DNA from: Oligoflexia bacterium
GTDB lineage: Bacteria; Bdellovibrionota; Bdellovibrionia; JABDDW01
Direction: 5' to 3'
Assembly (NCBI GenBank): GCA_043732305.1
Contig: JAYTHU010000231.1
Coordinates: 28,807 to 92,806 of the forward strand
DNA: 64,000 bases
Shown one piece after another: positions 1,804-35,256 of this stretch; the stretch's first letter is position 1; each line of letters starts with the position of its first letter. The notes below the pieces were generated by a model. It did not search any database. It saw only the letters and a list, made by a program, of their open reading frames with translations, and was not told the DNA's origin. The translations under genes were made by a program, and so were the position numbers.

Positions 1804-3185
1804 AACAGCTTACCGCCTTTGATTTTAAATTGGGAATGGCTTTTATAGGATTGATCATTCTTGCTTTGGCAATATCCGTCACTGCTGCTTACGGGCTGAA
1901 TGAAACAATTAAGACCAGCAGATCTATTGTCGACAATTATGCCCAAGATTTGATCATCTCCGAAAGACTGCGAGCCGAAGAAGAAGCATTGGTTAGCGCA
2001 AGTCGTGGATACCTCATCACCAAGAATCACAGTTTTTTAGCTCGTGAAAACGAGGCACTTGAAAAATTTCTAAAAGATTTGAACACTTTGAAATCCGAAG
2101 ACTCTCCAGCCGAACATCGAAAATTAATACTAGCAATGGAAACGGCAAGCGGCTTTTATCTCAAAATCTTGAATGATTTTATGTCAGCTCACTCTGATAA
2201 AAGCCTCAAGATACTCGCAAAGGCATTTGAAATAAATCTACAACCTCGCCATGATGCTTTCCAAGCGTCAGTTTTAAACTTTGTGAGATACACAAAAAAG
2301 CAACTGGAAGAACAAAAAGTTCTGATCAATCAAACCAATGAAAAGTTTTTAAATATTTTCGTAGCTGTGAGCATCTTTGCGATCACTCTTTCTATTTGGC
2401 TGGCGGCATTTATTTTAAGATCTTCTTCTCGCCAATTGAGAAGAACTCAAGACGCAGTAAAAATTCGTGAGGAAGTGGTCGAGACGGTCGCCCACGATCT
2501 TAAAAATCCTATTGCAGCAATCAAACTGAGCAATGATCTTTTACTTTTTTCAGCTCTGAAAAATGGCAACCTCACTTTAGCGGACGTTCAAAAACGAAAT
2601 AAAAATATTGATCGAGCTTTGAATCGTGCCACGGCCATAATCAACAGTCTCCTCGATCTCACCAAACTTAAAAACAATTCTCTGACGCTCGAAAAGAAAA
2701 ATGTTTCGCTTCAGGGATTACTGCAGGAAGTTTTCGAACTTTTTGAGTTGGCAACTAAAGAGAAGAATATTCAGTTCGAGCTGCGTCAAGGTGACCAATT
2801 ACCGTCACTCTTTTGTGATAGCGAAAGAATCATTCAAGTTCTTTCTAATCTTATGAACAACGCAATCAAATTTTCTCCAGCTGGTTCACAAATTACTTTA
2901 GGAGCTGATCCTGTTGGGCCAGACATGGTTTTTTATATCTCTGACAAAGGACCTGGAATTTCTGAGCAAGAGCAAAAACATATTTTTGATCGCTATTGGC
3001 AAACTGATTCCTCTAAGAAAAAAGGGACCGGCCTGGGACTTGCCATATGCCGAGGAATTGTCGACAGTCATAAAGGGAGAATCTGGGTCGAGAGCTCTAC
3101 TCGCGGTTCCACATTTTCATTTTCAATCCCCCGCTCGAAAGATAAAAAGATTGCCGGAAGATCAACTGAACTCGGGATGTTTTAA
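1800..3185 (+). CDS. Membrane sensor histidine kinase (2 TM, CHASE3/4-helix sensor, HisKA, HATPase_c)
   Basis: H-box VAHDLKNP, N-box NLMNNAIKF, G1 DKGPGI, G2 GTGLGLAI. ATGA overlap with the dioxygenase. Confidence 0.9.
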   Translation: MKQLTAFDFKLGMAFIGLIILALAISVTAAYGLNETIKTSRSIVDNYAQDLIISERLRAEEEALVSASRGYLITKNHSFLARENEALEKFLKDLNTLKSEDSPAEHRKLILAMETASGFYLKILNDFMSAHSDKSLKILAKAFEINLQPRHDAFQASVLNFVRYTKKQLEEQKVLINQTNEKFLNIFVAVSIFAITLSIWLAAFILRSSSRQLRRTQDAVKIREEVVETVAHDLKNPIAAIKLSNDLLLFSALKNGNLTLADVQKRNKNIDRALNRATAIINSLLDLTKLKNNSLTLEKKNVSLQGLLQEVFELFELATKEKNIQFELRQGDQLPSLFCDSERIIQVLSNLMNNAIKFSPAGSQITLGADPVGPDMVFYISDKGPGISEQEQKHIFDRYWQTDSSKKKGTGLGLAICRGIVDSHKGRIWVESSTRGSTFSFSIPRSKDKKIAGRSTELGMF

Positions 3186-3395
3186 AGTGATTTCTTGACC
3201 TCAATGTTGCAACGTTTGTAATCGGGATGTGGGCCGAGATTCACAGTTTTGAAACCGAGCTTGTGATACAAATTGATGGCAGGCTCGAGAACTGTATTTG
3301 AGAGAAAAACAATCTCTGTTCCATGCAATATTAAGATCTCGATAGACATTCTTAAATCTGGAATCGTATGTGATTACCGTGGGTTCAGTTTTCAT
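3182..3395 (-). pseudogene. Internally deleted GNAT acetyltransferase remnant
   Basis: N-terminus MKTEPTVITYDSRFKNVYRDLNIAW joins, out of frame at about 3320, a GNAT C-terminus GTEIVFLSNTVLEPAINLYHKLGF...DYKRCNIEVKKSL*. The central core is missing. Confidence 0.7.
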
Positions 3396-4494
3396 GTTAT
3401 TTCCGTTTTACTCTTGATCGAAGCCATATCAATCACATATCTAAAATCGGCTTTCTTGTCATTTATGATTTCGTAAGCCTCATTCACTTTTTCAATTGAA
3501 ATGATCTTTATATTCGGCTGAATGTTATTTTTAGCGCAAAAATCAAGAACGTCTTGAGTTTCCGCAATACTTCCAATCAGTGAAGAACCCAGACTTCTTC
3601 TATCTGGAATCATTTTAGTCATGTCTATTGGTTTTGTTAAAGGCGCAATACAACCCACAATGACAAGATGCCCATCGAGGTTTAAAAGCTTCACATAGGG
3701 ATTCACGTCGTGGGGCTGCGGAATAGTGCTAATAATAAAATCCAAAGTTTTTTCGTTAGATCTCATTTCTTTATGATCATTCGCATCTATAACTTCTATG
3801 GCACCCAATTCAAGGGCATAATCTTTCTTTTCAATAGAAGTCGTGAGCACCGTCACTTCAGCACCCATAGCGATCGCTAATTTTACTGCCATATGACCCA
3901 ATCCGCCCAATCCCGCTACACCCACTTTTGTCCCTTTTTTCACATCCCAATGGCGCATTGGAGAAAACGTTGTGACACCGGCACAAAGTATTGGAGCTGC
4001 TGCTGCTGGATCAAGATTTGGAGGAATTCTTAAAACGAAATTTTCGGGCACAACAATCGAATCAGAATATCCTCCAAAAGTATTATTTTCTGTTGTGGGT
4101 TTGCGCATATTCCCGTTGTACGTCGCAAGGAATCCGTCATCGCAATAATTTTCAAGACCATCTTTGCATGCGGGGCACTTGTGGCACGAATCAACCATGC
4201 AGCCGACGCCGGCCATGTCTCCAACTTTAAATTTTTTAACATCACCGCCCATCTTCACAATTTTACCAACAATTTCGTGACCTGGGAGGCACGGATAGAC
4301 AGTGTTTCTCCACTCGTTTCTAACTTGATGAATGTCTGAATGGCAAACTCCGCAGTACATAATATCAATAAGAACTTCATTCGGTTGGGGGTCTCGTTTT
4401 TCAAACTCAAATGGTTTAAGTTCACTGTGCGAAGATATGGCTGCATATATATTGGGGCAGATGTATCCTGTTTCACGAGAACAGGCACAGGCAT
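3392..4494 (-). pseudogene. Zn-dependent NAD(P)H alcohol dehydrogenase (CAD/YahK family), frameshifted near the 5' end
   Basis: YCGVCHSD, PGHE, CxxCxxC...C, LCAGVT and GLGGLG motifs. The conserved N-terminus YAAISSHSELKPFEFEKRDPQPNEVLIDI is in frame but has no ATG/GTG/TTG. Removing one AT from (AT)4 at 4445-4452 joins it to the ATG at 4494. Confidence 0.75.
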
Positions 4495-4669
4495 CGCGCG
4501 GTTTGTCCCCGACATGAGATTGAATATTTGATCTACTCTTCTCTTCGGCAAAGCCAACATAAAGGGAGAATTTTTTGAGACCTATAATTTTACTTTTTGA
4601 ATCTAATATTTTTATGACGCGTTTTGCATAATAGGCGCAGTTTATTTTATCTGCCGTAATACGCCATCT

Positions 4670-5539
4670 TCAGTTCGCATCTTTTGCATGAGGCTTACGC
4701 ATTATAAGATCAAAGGTTTCGCCTTCTGAAAGAATATGTAAGCGCACATCGTGACAGGACATGGTTTTATCCGCCGATGCTTCTGAAATATTTGTGTAAG
4801 TGACACCTGTTCCATCAATAATATAAACAGCGTTCTCTCCAATGACGTGAAAATGATCTTGCTTCACAACAATAGCGGTATTCTCGTCGATGCCCACGCC
4901 AAGCACTCCCGGGTTCATGGAGACTGCACCAAGCAAACGGCCAACTCGACCCCGCTGAGCAAAATGTTGATCGATAATCATATTTTCTAAAAGTCCAAGT
5001 CCTGGCGCCATCATCCAATTCCCAATTTTATGAGAATCCAATTGATCATTTCCGACGAGCATCATTTTTCCCATGACTGCCGCACCAGCAGATGTTCCAG
5101 CGATCGTGCCACCTTGCTTAAACAGTTTAAAAATTTTCTCTACGATTGGACTTCCCCCAAGTTTGGTAGTGATTTTAAGCTGATCTCCCCCGGTGAAGAA
5201 AAAAACTTTAGCGTCTTCAAAAAGTAAATCGACATCCACGACTCGAGCTTCATCAGGTTGATTGATATCCAAATGTTCAATAGATTTTACTCCTAAAGAC
5301 TTAAATATTTTATTGTACTCAGTCCACACTTGAGAAGGAATTTGACTGGCGACAGTTGAGACAATGAGTTTTCCGCCATCTACTTTTGCGGCGATCTCTT
5401 TCAAAATGGCAAGATCACCGATTTTATCTTCATTGCCACCAACGATAATCAGACTACCCGCAATTCCTTCAGATTCACGGCGAACAACTACGGGGAGTGC
5501 AGATTTTTTAATTTTTTTTTTAGTTTTAGTGGATTTCAT
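4670..5539 (-). CDS. cphB: Cyanophycinase
   Basis: IVGGNED, TGGDQ, catalytic GTSAGA, DQHFAQRGR, GIDENTA motifs; lies in the cphA operon. Confidence 0.93.
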   Translation of the reverse strand: MKSTKTKKKIKKSALPVVVRRESEGIAGSLIIVGGNEDKIGDLAILKEIAAKVDGGKLIVSTVASQIPSQVWTEYNKIFKSLGVKSIEHLDINQPDEARVVDVDLLFEDAKVFFFTGGDQLKITTKLGGSPIVEKIFKLFKQGGTIAGTSAGAAVMGKMMLVGNDQLDSHKIGNWMMAPGLGLLENMIIDQHFAQRGRVGRLLGAVSMNPGVLGVGIDENTAIVVKQDHFHVIGENAVYIIDGTGVTYTNISEASADKTMSCHDVRLHILSEGETFDLIMRKPHAKDAN

Positions 5540-31558: not shown

Positions 31559-32725
31559 TTAAGAAAAAGTGACGCGAGAATCAATGGGTAGACGAATCAA
31601 AAAGACTAGTCTGAGTACTAGCAAAAGACATACACTCAAAAGGACTGGGATCATATTTTCAACTTGGACTTTGCTTCCAACAAAAAATCCTAAACATACA
31701 CCCAGATCAATTAAAAAATTGAGGGTGCCGAGGCGTCTTCCCAAACTAATTTCTGGTCCACTAATTCCCGCGTAAATCTGCAAGTAAAAAGAAAATAAAG
31801 GACAACAACAAATATAAAGCGAAGAAAAACCAATCACAACAAATGCTCTTTTTGAGATGAAGGCATAAATGATAAAACCTAAAGCTAATATGGTAATGGG
31901 TAAGAAAAACTGTTTGAGTTTTGCAGTTTCAATTTTTCTTATAAGCAACAGACCAATTAAGCTTGCTATTCCTCCACAAACCCAAAAAGCTGATACAAGA
32001 GATACAGATTTAAACAAAAGAATCTTTTGTACAAAAAAGGGATTCAATGGGATTGAAACTAAGCCAACCAAAATACATCCAAAAATAAAATCAACCGACT
32101 TTAATCCCGCCAACTCCGCTAATATTTCAGAGCTCTTCATAATATCTTTAATTTTTTGTGTTAAAATTAATTCTCTTTTTGTAAGTAGATAGGACTGTAT
32201 GATACCAGCCCCAATATATAGTGTTGCGCAAAAGAAAATGGCCATAAAACCGAAATAGATAAAAATGAGCGGACCTGCACCAAAACCAATCAGTTTTGCG
32301 CACGTCACCAAAAATGTGCGATTGAAGAATCTGTGTTTTAATTCCGCAGTCGAGAAGCCGGCAAGAAGCCACTTAGACTCAACTACATTGCTCATAGCTA
32401 AAATAAAATATAACAAAGGCAGGCTATAAATTGCAAAAACTAGATGTTTTGTTTTCAAAAAGGCAGAAATTGCCATCACTAGTAAAGCACAAAGGAATTG
32501 GCAAACAACGGCTGCGCGCTTTTGGAACCTGGAATCTGATATGATTCCCCCAAGCAAATCAAATCCTAGCGATCCTAAAATAGCGGAAAAATATATTTGA
32601 GAAAGATTATAATCGTTGTGATTCAGCGAAGACAAGAGAAGTGGAAAGCCAGTCCAAAAGAGACAACCAGCTAAAGTACTCATCAACGAAGACCCAAGAA
32701 GCAAAATCATCTTACACCTATCCAA
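31559..32725 (-). CDS. MFS exporter (divergent, about 12 TM)
   Basis: Hydrophobic helices throughout; motif-A-like GGIISDSRFQKR; overlaps the TauD gene by 19 nt. Confidence 0.7.
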   Translation of the reverse strand: MDRCKMILLLGSSLMSTLAGCLFWTGFPLLLSSLNHNDYNLSQIYFSAILGSLGFDLLGGIISDSRFQKRAAVVCQFLCALLVMAISAFLKTKHLVFAIYSLPLLYFILAMSNVVESKWLLAGFSTAELKHRFFNRTFLVTCAKLIGFGAGPLIFIYFGFMAIFFCATLYIGAGIIQSYLLTKRELILTQKIKDIMKSSEILAELAGLKSVDFIFGCILVGLVSIPLNPFFVQKILLFKSVSLVSAFWVCGGIASLIGLLLIRKIETAKLKQFFLPITILALGFIIYAFISKRAFVVIGFSSLYICCCPLFSFYLQIYAGISGPEISLGRRLGTLNFLIDLGVCLGFFVGSKVQVENMIPVLLSVCLLLVLRLVFLIRLPIDSRVTFS

Positions 32726-33327
32726 TAACGCCGAAGAAATCTTGCTGAGTCTTCTGCTAACCTTCCCCTACGATGTAAGTATCTATTGTTGTCAATTATT
32801 AGCAAATCGTGCTTTTCCCAATAAAATGTAACTCGAAACTTTTCACTTTCTTTGATCGCCTTGCAAATACTTCTAACAACGCTTTCCGATTTTTTTTGAG
32901 CTACTAACCAAGGACAAAAATACATTATTTCAACGCCCTTGATATTTCTTAGAAGCATCGGTACGTGAGAAGTCTCTTTAACACCATTTACCTCCGTAAA
33001 AATTTTTCTCATTTTGCATTTAACCGTATTGGAAATGATATTCTGAATATTAAGCCCGTCTAGAATTTCTGTTGCTTCCCGTGGCTGCGAACCCGGATTA
33101 TAGCAATGCCAAGCGATCCATTGTGCCTCGGGTGCATCATTGTGCCAAGCTATCGGTTCCTTTTTAAAAACTTTCGAGTTTTTTAACGGCATCAATTTTA
33201 CATCTGTAACGAGCAAAATCTTACCTAAATATTTAATAACTGACTCAGCACTATCTTTTTTAATGTTTTTGATTAAAACAAAACCATTTGGTCTGAGTTC
33301 TTCGGCCAATATCTTTTTAATCATCAC
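32707..33327 (-). CDS. TauD/TfdA-family Fe(II)/2-oxoglutarate dioxygenase
   Basis: Facial triad WHND...YLH, DLLIIDN, and the 2OG-binding R in RFLRRYW. Confidence 0.8.
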   Translation of the reverse strand: MMIKKILAEELRPNGFVLIKNIKKDSAESVIKYLGKILLVTDVKLMPLKNSKVFKKEPIAWHNDAPEAQWIAWHCYNPGSQPREATEILDGLNIQNIISNTVKCKMRKIFTEVNGVKETSHVPMLLRNIKGVEIMYFCPWLVAQKKSESVVRSICKAIKESEKFRVTFYWEKHDLLIIDNNRYLHRRGRLAEDSARFLRRYWIGVR

Positions 33328-33774
33328 TTATTCCACCATCTCTGGGAAATGCTTTGCGACAAGTCTCAAGGTGTTATCAATCATCTCTTTTTCACAACTG
33401 TGACTAATGAATGTGCCCTTGAGTCCCGCGTAAGGAAAGTGATGCAAATATTTACCGAAGATCAAATTACAATTTTTTTTGTAATTTCTTGTGTCGAGAA
33501 TATGCAAATGCCAAAATTCGTCGATCTCATAGGTGGGAACTATAAACTGCCGCGGGTACCTCTTGCATAAATACAAGAATATCCTGTATTGTTCTCCAAC
33601 TTGATGCGCTTTTTCTTTGCTCCAGCCATATCCTGAGGGCCCGCTAAGGCTTTTAGTCTTAATCCGATTTAAGTTAAGTGTGTCAAGAACCGACAAACCA
33701 GTTCTTAGTTTCTTAAATTGTTTTTCTCCAAATAACTTTTTTGGAGAGTTAAACATATAGTATTTAGATTTCAT
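33328..33774 (-). CDS. GRDP/DUF1399-like ('glycine-rich domain-containing protein-like') protein without a Gly-rich tail
   Basis: QYRIFLYL...IVPTYEIDEFWHLHILDTRNY...C...FGKYLHHFPY; SD GAGG. Confidence 0.7.
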   Translation of the reverse strand: MKSKYYMFNSPKKLFGEKQFKKLRTGLSVLDTLNLNRIKTKSLSGPSGYGWSKEKAHQVGEQYRIFLYLCKRYPRQFIVPTYEIDEFWHLHILDTRNYKKNCNLIFGKYLHHFPYAGLKGTFISHSCEKEMIDNTLRLVAKHFPEMVE

Positions 33775-33796
33775 GACATTTCCTCAATTGAAAAAT

Positions 33797-33819
33797 GCTA
33801 CGGCCTTAAGGTGACCGTA
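33797..33819 (-). terminator. Stem-loop between the small ORF and the GRDP-like gene (stabiliser or attenuator)
   Basis: Minus strand TACGGTC-ACCTTAA-GGCCGTA (7-bp stem with one G-U), just after the sORF stop; only a short U run follows. Confidence 0.5.
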
Positions 33820-33829
33820 CCGAAGCTAC

Positions 33830-33883
33830 TTATTTATAGCTGGTAGGATTTCCAGTTTTATACGACCATTTGATTTTTTTCAT
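33830..33883 (-). CDS. 17-aa small ORF MKKIKWSYKTGNPTSYK (candidate RiPP precursor or leader peptide)
   Basis: SD AAGAAAGGAGG, then AAAT, then ATG at 33883; TAA at 33830; first ORF of the operon. Confidence 0.65.
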   Translation of the reverse strand: MKKIKWSYKTGNPTSYK

Positions 33884-33903
33884 ATTTCCTCCTTTCTTGA
33901 ATT

Positions 33904-33981: not shown

Positions 33982-34008
33982 AAAAAAAAAGAAGTAGGCA
34001 CATCCTAC
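33982..34008 (-). terminator. Rho-independent terminator-like hairpin
   Basis: Minus strand GTAGG-ATGTG-CCTAC followed by TTC and T9. Confidence 0.55.
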
Positions 34009-34014
34009 ACATGC

Positions 34015-34043
34015 AAAATAATTTGCATTTCGCAAATTATTTT
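34015..34043. promoter_or_regulatory. Perfect 12-bp inverted repeat (operator or hairpin)
   Basis: AAAATAATTTGC-ATTTC-GCAAATTATTTT, overlapping a second palindrome ATGCAAA-ATAA-TTTGCAT at 34011-34028. Confidence 0.5.
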
Positions 34044-34159: not shown

Positions 34160-34708
34160 TTACAGCTTTGATTTTTGTAACGCCTTAAGTTGTTCTAAGA
34201 AAATTTTCAATTTATCTAACATTCCTTCAGAGGCTGACCATTTCTTTACCTTTTCTAATTTGATGGGATGATTCTTAGCTACTAAAAGTGCCTGCTCTAA
34301 ACTCTGTCTATCCTTCCAATGATAGAAAGCCGCAAGACGGTCCATCACACACTGAGTAGGCGAAAGCAGTTTCAGAACAAATTTACCCGATTTAATTCTT
34401 GCCTCTGGCTTTTCTGGAGTATCACCAATCATGAGGGTCCTTCCAGGAAACTCTACATAAAACGAAGCTCCGGAATGATAAAAATCTTTACCCTCAATTT
34501 TAAAACCTAGGGAGTACATCACTTTCTCAATTTTTTGATGATCGACAATGCTAAGGAAATTAACATCTTTCGATTTATATTTGTTATTTGAATAAATAGA
34601 TACGACTGCGCCCCCAACAAGAATAACATCGATGTCATGTTTTTCTAATTCTGCAGCTACAGTGATCGCAAATTCCCAAAGTGACATTTTTTTATTTAAA
34701 CTTTTCAC
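34160..34708 (-). CDS. Nucleotidyltransferase-fold protein (AbiEii/type IV TA-like)
   Basis: VILVGGAVVSIYS...SKDVNF (GG...DxD-like, second Asp is Asn); paired with an upstream wHTH gene. Confidence 0.55.
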   Translation of the reverse strand: MKSLNKKMSLWEFAITVAAELEKHDIDVILVGGAVVSIYSNNKYKSKDVNFLSIVDHQKIEKVMYSLGFKIEGKDFYHSGASFYVEFPGRTLMIGDTPEKPEARIKSGKFVLKLLSPTQCVMDRLAAFYHWKDRQSLEQALLVAKNHPIKLEKVKKWSASEGMLDKLKIFLEQLKALQKSKL

Positions 34709-35033
34709 AATGCTTTGCCCGTTCTTCGTGGCCTCCGGCGCTGCCTATAATATTTTTTTTTTCTTCTGCTGAAATAAACATGAGGGCCTTTTCACAAAGC
34801 CGTTCCACTTCAATTTTGAGAGGATACCGTGGATTAAATGTGAACATACGAAGATTTCCTAAGTCTCGGCCAACAAGAATTTCACCTTTTTCCAGACGAA
34901 TGAGTTGTTTACGAACTTGTGACTTAGACAACTTGAATGTGTTGGCTATGCCAGAAATATTTCCTTCTCCGTAATTTGTTATATAGAGGAGAATGCGTTC
35001 GGCTGTCTTATTACCTACTAAGGATTCAAGCAT
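34692..35033 (-). pseudogene. Winged-HTH protein, frameshifted in an A10 run near the C-terminus
   Basis: wHTH motif (ISGIANTF...VRKQLIRLE...FNPRYP). A11 instead of A10 (34753-34762) gives ...KKKYYRQRRRPRRTGKAL* with a GTGA stop/start overlap at 34705-34708. Confidence 0.7.
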
Positions 35034-35144
35034 ATGTTTATATTAGCACAAAGTAGAACGATTGTACTATTTAATAGAACGGAAAAATTTGACTCGTTCC
35101 AAGAGCCGAAATTTTTACTAGTGATTTCAAATAGTTATCAGATT

Positions 35145-35234
35145 TGGTGGAGAGGGTGAGATTCGAACTCACGAACCCCGTGAAGGGTCTCCAGTTTTCA
35201 AGACTGGTGCGATCAACCGCTCTGCCACCTCTCC
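35145..35234 (-). tRNA. tRNA-Ser (anticodon UGA), encoded CCA end
   Basis: GGAGAGGTGGCAGAGCGGTTGATCGCACCAGTCTTGAAAACTGGAGACCCTTCACGGGGTTCGTGAGTTCGAATCTCACCCTCTCCACCA; long variable arm. Confidence 0.97.
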
Positions 35235-35256
35235 AAGTGACGGACATTTAAGGATT

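Follow-up and report, generated by a model that had tools for sequence, protein, structure and literature searches.

Does the 17-codon open reading frame (ORF) in front of genes for a GRDP-like protein, an oxygenase and a transporter encode the substrate of a peptide-modifying pathway, and if so, which protein acts on it? The question is raised by a cassette in contig JAYTHU010000231.1 (assembly GCA_043732305.1), of which the 64,000-nt stretch at positions 28,807-92,806 was analysed; this whole stretch is referred to as the window, and all coordinates follow its numbering. On the minus strand, the small ORF (sORF), a terminator-like hairpin and the GRDP-like, TauD-like and MFS-like genes follow one another in this order. 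On balance, we consider it probable that they form a split system of the kind that makes ribosomally synthesized peptides that are post-translationally modified (RiPPs), new in kind, in which the GRDP-like protein would be the modifying enzyme. The split cassette measures about 2.3 kb, for one peptide and one or two enzymes, and consists of the following features.

33895..33888, minus strand: Shine-Dalgarno site AAAGGAGG, read from the sequence, 4 nt 5' of the sORF ATG.
33883..33830, minus strand (stop codon 33832..33830): sORF of 17 codons plus TAA, encoding MKKIKWSYKTGNPTSYK, the proposed precursor or substrate peptide.
33819..33799, minus strand: stem-loop TACGGTC-ACCTTAA-GGCCGTA, followed by GCATTTTTCA (whole element 33819..33790), terminator-like, in the spacer between sORF and enzymes.
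33774..33328, minus strand: GRDP-like / PF27765 (UCP032817-like) ORF of 148 amino acids (aa), preceded by GAGGAA; proposed modifying metalloenzyme.
33327..32707, minus strand: short TauD/TfdA-family Fe(II)/2-oxoglutarate oxygenase, 206 aa; proposed optional tailoring enzyme.
32725..31559, minus strand: MFS-type transporter, 388 aa from TTG, or 383 aa from ATG 32710; proposed exporter.

A preliminary description of this DNA had reported four co-oriented genes, with a strong Shine-Dalgarno site and a 3' hairpin at the tiny ORF, and this arrangement was confirmed on the minus strand. The gapless junction that it gave between the GRDP-like and TauD-like genes is also correct, as the GTG start of the latter directly abuts the TAA stop of the former, with an ATG 3 nt later. 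The 19-nt overlap that it assigned to the TauD-like and MFS-like genes should probably be revised, since ATG 32710 is a likelier start of the MFS-like gene than TTG 32725 and makes a 4-nt ATGA start/stop overlap with the TauD-like stop codon.

The predicted peptide, MKKIKWSYKTGNPTSYK, has a mass of 2.06 kDa and a pI of 10.1. A homologue search with the 148-aa GRDP-like protein returned 104 homologues, about 20 of which show 44-57% identity across the full length and have no C-terminal tail; they constitute the clade of the window protein. Genomic context was recovered for 12 distinct members of this clade, which together with the window make 13 loci; the named sources are Pseudobdellovibrionaceae, Bdellovibrionales and Bacteriovoracaceae metagenome-assembled genomes (MAGs). 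The preliminary description had made its case depend on a conserved upstream sORF in homologous clusters. A tiny ORF indeed precedes the GRDP-like gene in 12 of the 13 loci (the window and 11 of the 12 others), with W and Y at fixed positions and a hairpin behind it. The 11 homologous sORFs lie 90-135 nt upstream of the GRDP-like gene and encode MRKIRWTYKKTATSYKAM, MRKITWKYSKPTTSY, MKTTLKVKWNYRKSTTSFR, MKKIKWNYKKEVTSYKVW, MRKVKWTYTRSTTSFR, MRKIKWNYRGGSVTSYR, MRKKTWNYSQPTTSHK, VKKVKVTWNYRRTATSYK, MRKIKWNYKKPSTSYK, MKKISWNYRKPYTSYK and MKATQQKQVKPTWTSSKATTCFKL, the last of which is diverged. AAGGAG-type ribosome-binding sites lie ahead of the sORF in 10 of the 12 homologous loci. The thirteenth locus, L167, contains a doubtful variant ORF (LECFIWASKDMKAETSFK, 4720-4776), which lacks a Shine-Dalgarno site and overlaps an ABC-2 permease gene (2202-4784) at the 3' end of that gene.

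The sORF peptides share the consensus W-x-Y-x4/5-T-[S/C]-[Y/F/H], in which W and T are 7 apart in 10 loci and 8 apart in two, one of them the window. Outside both motifs the sequence is variable. The C-terminus extends 0 to 3 residues past the second motif (..TSY, ..TSYK, ..TSYKAM and ..TSYKVW before the stop), and the peptides are 15-24 aa long across the loci, 15-19 aa in most. The pattern W.[YS].{2,7}T[SC][YFH] was searched for in ORFs of 10-40 aa. In the 250 nt that precede the GRDP-like gene, 12 of the 13 clade loci contain it, as compared to 0 expected from shuffled upstream regions; the whole 64-kb window contains it once, and 1.23 Mb of other loci contain it once. At the conserved residues, the codons vary synonymously between loci (Thr ACC/ACT/ACA/ACG, Ser AGC/TCT/TCA/TCG, Tyr TAT/TAC). 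This variation at the conserved T, S and Y therefore indicates selection on the sORF protein. A short precursor-like gene under protein-level selection, situated beside candidate processing genes, is what a RiPP cluster typically displays.

The GRDP-like protein is assigned to PF27765 and, marginally, to PF07173. The former, a recent Pfam family named 'UCP032817-like', is precomputed for the 100%-identical protein P0001 and for all 104 homologues, while the PF07173 match reaches 24.9 bits (cut-off 22.7) and covers residues 61-100 only. The family signature D-x2-W-H-x-H-x-L-D-T ... H-H-x-P-Y-x-G is present as EIDEFWHLHILDT ... LHHFPYAG. An alignment of 90 diverse homologues has 13 invariant columns (Y63, W88, H89, H91, L93, D94, T95, Y98, H111, H112, P114, Y115 and G117), and D85, D101 and C102 are nearly invariant. 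Being mostly polar or aromatic, the invariant columns are of the kind typically seen at an active site and not in a passive leader domain. The AlphaFold2 model is all-helical, with a predicted local distance difference test (pLDDT) score of 89.7 and a predicted template modelling (pTM) score of 0.85. A Foldseek search of the PDB with this model gave no match below E = 4, and none of the PDB sequences fell below E 0.5 in a profile search. The preliminary description had called the domain TIGR04222-type; this identity was discarded, as NCBIfam gave no match for the window protein or for nine relatives including fused forms (E up to 1).

Four loci (L002, L004, L171 and L175) contain minimal cassettes, composed of the sORF, the GRDP-like gene and a transporter gene. 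As no other enzyme is encoded in them, the GRDP-like protein is the sole candidate enzyme there. The constant core of the cassette is the peptide and the GRDP-like protein; an exchangeable exporter is usual, and the oxygenase is accessory. We infer the modifying role of the GRDP-like protein from these minimal cassettes, from the invariant residues and from its distant relatives with fused repeats, which we describe below. No paper linking DUF1399, GRDP, PF07173 or UCP032817 to peptide modification was found, the literature matches being plant GRDP stress proteins, and the literature searched on Bdellovibrio yielded no RiPP link. Neither the candidate enzyme family that would define the class nor the very small precursor nor the fused/split pattern seems to have been described before in the literature searched.

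With the clade profile, 10,381 representatives of 50% identity clusters were matched at E <= 1e-3, and 3,013 passed the stricter limit of E <= 1e-10; only about three representatives belong to the tail-less clade of the window. Most relatives outside the clade are longer, with an extra C-terminal part. In proteins of Duganella, Janthinobacterium, Massilia, Pseudoduganella, Herbaspirillum, Variovorax and Thiomargarita, and in many metagenomic proteins, the PF27765 domain is followed by 3-18 tandem short units, such as TAYSAAPG, TAYSGR, TAWSARAP, AAWCTRT, AAWCSAEA, AFCAGPG, NAFCGAPDKQ, TAWSYVPP and DTATCTDKIYV. The units follow the short-core pattern [A/T]-[Y/F/W/H]-[S/C]-x: their constant part pairs an aromatic residue (Y/F/W, in one case H) with a Ser or Cys directly after it, and the remainder is hypervariable between species. 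At least three repeats are present in 48 of the 145 best representatives. Other relatives carry a single Cys-rich tail, often C-P-x-C-G-R-R ... R-P-x-L. The earlier suggestion that the tails of relatives resemble RiPP precursors was strikingly borne out. Multi-core RiPP precursors have this architecture, in which hypervariable cores are repeated behind a conserved N-terminal domain. The composition of the sORFs matches that of the fused cores: KWSY of the window resembles TAWSY of Telluria, T-S-Y/F/H becomes T-C-F in L173, and the same alternations of S/C and of Y/F/H occur in both.

Several further features of these relatives were recorded. Fused repeats are found at L065:5986-7068, L081:5986-6834 and L013:5992-6684, within the sets L010-L086 and P0107-P0251, and many Oxalobacteraceae genomes have two such genes in tandem, with different cores. 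A conserved (F-Y-x-x-)R-P-x-L usually forms the C-terminal end of both the multi-core and the CxxCGRR-type relatives; it is absent from the clade of the window and may be a processing or sorting signal. Three proteins, P0107 (459 aa), P0108 (391 aa) and P0119 (411 aa), contain two PF27765 domains each, and P0107 apparently also has a hydrophobic C-terminal segment; no transmembrane segments were apparent when the fused proteins were read. In Thiomargarita (L071:5800-7800), the multi-core gene (DTATCTDKIYV, 6 copies) is directly followed by a gene for a TonB-dependent receptor (Plug domain), and the product there might be metal-binding or otherwise imported. When the neighbours of fused relatives were clustered all against all, Oxalobacteraceae synteny and spurious high-GC ORFs made up most of the outcome, and in ten diverse loci that were inspected this receptor gene was the only suggestive neighbour.

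The resemblance of the fused relatives to the NHLP and Nif11 precursors, which combine a domain with a hypervariable core and whose large N-terminal domain is non-catalytic, raises the possibility that the GRDP-like protein is itself non-catalytic. It would then serve in binding, as a chaperone, in immunity or as a detached leader or recognition domain, and the peptide would be exported unmodified, be modified only by the TauD-like oxygenase where present, or be modified by enzymes encoded elsewhere, for which YcaO-like proteins are candidates. A fold unlike that of any enzyme in the Foldseek comparison with the PDB would suit such a role, as would the YcaO-like genes located 2-5 kb upstream in L171, L173 and L002. 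However, 13 invariant columns in 90 diverse sequences, among which are four His, one Asp and three Tyr, would be unusual for a passive domain, and the minimal cassettes hold no other enzyme. Furthermore, no YcaO, radical S-adenosylmethionine, MNIO or other RiPP enzyme was found near the cassette in the 64-kb window, nor in L001, L004 and L169. A non-catalytic role thus seems unlikely to us.

As to the YcaO-like genes themselves, that of L171 (355-2719) and that of L173 (326-2957) each follow an SBP_bac_5 gene, with a histidine kinase gene as well in L173. In L002 (23-814), the YcaO-like gene, which has no Pfam match and was recognized by a phmmer match to the YcaO proteins of L171 and L173, is followed by a kinase gene. 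A link between these genes and the cassette was considered and set aside, given their absence from the window, L001, L004 and L169; local synteny is more likely than a looser functional link.

The spacer between the sORF and the enzymes bears on a different reading of the tiny ORF. The window hairpin has a 7-bp stem with four G-C pairs and a 7-nt loop, and begins ten nt past the sORF stop; a consensus scan of the region counted three terminator-like sites, as compared to 2.2 expected. A stem-loop of 7-19 bp, with a folding free energy of -8 to -27 kcal/mol, occupies this spacer at all nine loci examined, the window included. These hairpins are unrelated in sequence between loci, and T-runs follow several of them. 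They start 2-21 nt past the sORF stop, and 2-10 nt past it in seven of the nine loci.

Such an arrangement could also be that of a cis-acting leader peptide in the style of TnaC, ErmCL or CatA86, whose translation or stalling would control read-through of the hairpin into a detoxification or efflux operon acting on a free small molecule. A short ORF with a strong Shine-Dalgarno site, immediately followed by a terminator-like hairpin, was seen at every locus examined, and in seven of the nine the stem falls within the footprint of the terminating ribosome. The conserved Trp has a parallel in TnaC, where it is critical, and the efflux pump downstream and an oxygenase from a family that often acts on small molecules would fit an operon of this type. 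However, the sORF shows no conserved antiterminator pairing with the 5' arm of the hairpin: between 0 of 12 and 10 of 15 arm bases pair, inconsistently across the loci. Stop-codon stalling peptides keep their C-terminus fixed, whereas here it varies by 0 to 3 residues, and the conservation covers two separated motifs at a fixed spacing. Moreover, a leader peptide would leave the fusion of the domain to tandem peptide-like repeats in thousands of relatives unexplained. An Rfam scan of the region detected no leader or riboswitch, only the tRNA and a sub-threshold sX4 match. We regard a purely regulatory sORF as improbable.

The proposal that the sORF encodes the substrate of the GRDP-like protein extends to the two genes downstream. 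The TauD-like protein matches the TauD model (PF02668) at 37.6 bits (cut-off 27) over residues 144-202 only, its C-terminal 60 residues. H62-x-D64, H185 and R187 are invariant in seven TauD-like orthologues, and the downstream Arg motif SxRHLxRxW is kept; with its HxD...H...R site intact, the oxygenase therefore appears to be active. Its best PDB sequence matches, CarC and FrbJ, are weak, and a homologue search with it returned two proteins. It is classed as a short member of the TauD/TfdA family, and its gene is present in six of the 12 cassettes (the window, L001, L008, L169, L174 and L176), optional as would be expected of a tailoring step. In the six TauD-bearing cassettes, all six sORFs contain x-T-S-Y, where x is not T, while five of the six TauD-less ones contain T-T-[S/C]-[Y/F/H]. 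With n = 12 and no correction for phylogeny, Fisher's test gave p = 0.06 for the Tyr and p = 0.015 for the preceding Thr, a hint that the oxygenase may act at or beside the C-terminal Tyr of the peptide.

The window transporter had no Pfam match. It matches its orthologues in L001 and L002 (phmmer, 7.5e-52 and 5.4e-52), and the L001 and L171 transporters match MFS_1 at 42.5 and 38.2 bits (cut-off 33.4); through this homology to orthologues that pass the Pfam model it is identified as a putative MFS protein, and a crude hydropathy scan found about 11-12 hydrophobic segments. An MFS or MatE-like transporter gene lies immediately downstream of the enzymes in nine loci, MFS in most, at the place of the dedicated export or immunity gene of RiPP clusters. 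L087 and L173 encode a MatE-like protein of about 430 aa at this position. In L167, a three-gene ABC-2 exporter directly upstream takes the place of the MFS gene. In L176, no transporter gene follows the TauD-like gene; a stretch 1.5-3 kb downstream (2199-4163) contains a 66-aa ORF together with genes for an EamA transporter and, as its partner at a distance of 1.8 kb, an Rce1-like (CPBP) protease. CPBP proteases are often tied to bacteriocin immunity or processing. The genes flanking the cassette differ at every locus. The exporter is conserved in its role and mostly in its place, with a change of family between loci.

The nature of these pumps leaves room for a variant of our model that differs in its end product: a small molecule or cofactor made from the peptide, by analogy with pyrroloquinoline quinone (PQQ) or pantocin A. 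The sORF peptide would then be only a scaffold, from which housekeeping peptidases would excise a cross-linked or oxidised fragment built from W/Y and T/S/Y for export by the pump. MFS, MATE and EamA pumps typically carry small molecules, the flanks outside both motifs are variable, and PqqA is of a similarly small size, with a hairpin behind its gene. Pantocin A likewise combines a 30-aa precursor with a 2-oxoglutarate oxygenase and an EamA exporter (PMC12250964). However, the cassette contains no peptidase gene, the fixed 7-residue spacing between W and T-S-aromatic suggests that the whole 10-residue segment matters, and nothing nearby points to a cofactor-dependent enzyme. This outcome is quite unlikely in our estimate.

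Returning to the split system with the GRDP-like protein as modifying enzyme, we propose the following course. The 17-aa sORF would be translated from its own strong ribosome-binding site. The hairpin would act as a leaky terminator that leaves peptide mRNA in excess over enzyme mRNA, and the peptide would be made in excess because read-through is attenuated. The GRDP-like protein would bind and modify the peptide with the help of a probable metal site, suggested by the Asp/His/Tyr cluster D85, H89, H91, D94, Y98, H111, H112 and Y115. The reaction would most likely be oxidative, taking place at W6, Y8 and T14-S15-Y16, which are held at fixed spacing. Where present, the short TauD-type Fe/2-oxoglutarate oxygenase would make a second oxidative step, and the MFS pump (MATE-like in other genomes) would export a small product; the 10-residue W...Y segment amounts to about 1.2 kDa. 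This logic of precursor, enzyme, tailoring and exporter is that of known RiPP clusters.

Several observations weigh against the proposal. The peptide is very short, with only about five residues preceding the conserved W, and no leader, RiPP recognition element (RRE) or protease is recognisable in the cassette, which accordingly does not display the leader/core organisation with recognition element and protease of a typical RiPP. The fold of the GRDP-like protein has no known relative, so that catalysis and metal binding rest on conservation. The order of the aromatic and Ser/Cys residues is reversed between the C-terminal motif of the sORF ([SC]-Ar) and the fused repeats (Ar-[SC]). Instead of being an enzyme, the domain of the fused relatives could act as a large, protein-like leader in the manner of NHLP or Nif11, and no partner enzyme was evident in the ten diverse loci inspected, where the neighbours were housekeeping genes. 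The hairpin lies inside the footprint of the terminating ribosome in most loci, and regulatory coupling is therefore possible. Finally, all examples of the cassette come from Bdellovibrionota-type MAGs or from metagenomes.

The surroundings of the cassette in the window were also inspected. The preliminary description had called the block AT-rich and placed it beside a tRNA gene, which lies as follows.

35145-35234: tRNA-Ser(tga), 1.25 kb from the sORF, with two unrelated genes between.

The count given there for 32401-32460 is right (14 G+C in 60), but it does not extend to an AT-rich island. The G+C content of the cassette is 0.367-0.375 per 1-kb bin, as compared to about 0.42 for the window, and its AT-richness is modest because other 1-kb bins are equally low (0.352 to 0.375). 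The association with tRNA-Ser did not survive either, given the distance and the genes between, and no tRNA adjoins the cassette at any of the 12 homologous loci. A genomic island at a tRNA gene was rejected in view of the modest composition dip and the absence of a tRNA from the other loci. With 36 bits, the sX4 match of the Rfam scan (35092-35248, minus strand) stays below the gathering score of 70; it overlaps tRNA-Ser and most likely arises from the tRNA as an artefact.

Between the cassette and tRNA-Ser, two overlapping genes (34160-35033, minus strand) encode an ArsR-like helix-turn-helix protein (113 aa) and a DUF2204 nucleotidyltransferase-like protein (182 aa). The pair resembles a separate two-gene module, possibly toxin-antitoxin-like, and is not kept beside other cassettes. 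A perfect 10-bp inverted repeat, AATAATTTGC-GAAAT-GCAAATTATT (34017-34041, minus strand), is followed by a second terminator-like hairpin, GTAGGATGTGCCTAC with a T-run (33994-34008, minus strand). Both sit between the upstream gene and the promoter region of the sORF, and could mark the upstream operon's 3' end or serve as an operator.

If the proposal is true, the cassette would represent a new RiPP class, whose defining enzyme is without a known fold relative or a described function, and the precursors of 15-19 residues that most loci encode would rank with the smallest known for bacterial RiPPs. A domain family that thousands of bacterial genomes contain, and to which plant GRDP proteins are distantly related, would gain a function, and the hypervariable tandem repeats on many of its members would be accounted for. 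The split cassette of about 2.3 kb offers an unusually tractable entry to the chemistry, and fused relatives occur in easily cultured Oxalobacteraceae.

Among known systems, the TnaC, ErmCL and Cat leaders resemble the present sORF in their very small size, their strong ribosome-binding site and their place directly upstream of a hairpin and of genes including one for an efflux pump, whereas here no competing RNA structure is conserved, the C-terminus is variable and the domain is fused to repeats elsewhere. The TIGR04222 proteins are bacterial membrane proteins with a conserved N-terminal part and Cys/Ser/Gly-rich tails that are suspected to be modified, and have been proposed as MNIO substrates (PMC12452194). 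The fused PF27765 relatives similarly join a conserved N-terminal part to Cys/Ser-type C-terminal tails; the window protein and six fused relatives fall outside the TIGR04222 model, and no MNIO gene was seen in the neighbourhoods of the fused relatives examined. The plant proteins GRDP1 and GRDP2 (DUF1399, PF07173) are known for roles in stress and development, and no enzyme activity is reported for them (PMC4299439, PMC13001069). They have in common with the window protein the short WHxHxLD-containing segment behind its weak Pfam match, and their C-terminal region is low-complexity and glycine-rich; however, the alignment is limited to about 40 residues at the end of the Pfam model, and the plant genes lack the sORF and exporter context.

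In layout, the closest system is the pantocin A cluster paaPABC of Pantoea, which spans about 3.5 kb in one orientation and encodes a 30-aa precursor, a ThiF-like enzyme, a 2-oxoglutarate-Fe(II) oxygenase and an EamA exporter that gives self-resistance (PMC12250964). Both present, in order, a tiny precursor, a core enzyme, a 2-oxoglutarate oxygenase and an exporter of the small-molecule type, and the homologous locus L176 has an EamA transporter gene downstream, EamA being also the family of paaC. The two differ in their core enzyme and in its substrate: the ThiF-like adenylyltransferase of pantocin A acts on Glu-Glu, whereas the enzyme proposed here is a PF27765 helical domain, no ThiF-family match being found in any cassette protein, and the conserved residues are W, Y, T and S, in a precursor of 15-24 aa as compared to 30 aa.

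In family architecture, the closest parallel is provided by the plant BURP cyclases, which occur as autocatalytic fused proteins with repeated cores or as split enzymes with separate precursors (PMC12186524). Burpitides have Tyr/Trp-centred cores whose side chains are cross-linked in a metal- and O2-dependent reaction, and in the cyclopeptide alkaloids an Fe/2-oxoglutarate enzyme further modifies the BURP product (PMC12186524; PMC12871766). The window protein has no Pfam match to the BURP domain, and its all-helical model has no PDB match; furthermore, the present family is bacterial, with the repeats C-terminal to the domain. As there is no relationship in sequence or fold, the likeness is therefore one of working like a BURP cyclase, not of being a member of that family. 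The PF27765 family shows the same dichotomy of fused and split forms. We thus put forward, as a tentative idea that we rate somewhat below even, that PF27765, with about 10,000 representative clusters, comprises very widespread, previously unrecognised bacterial peptide-modifying metalloenzymes of a new fold, either fused to their cores and autocatalytic, as in Janthinobacterium, Duganella, Massilia and Variovorax, or split from a tiny precursor, as in the window, which would make the family a bacterial counterpart of the BURP cyclases and the basis of a new RiPP class.

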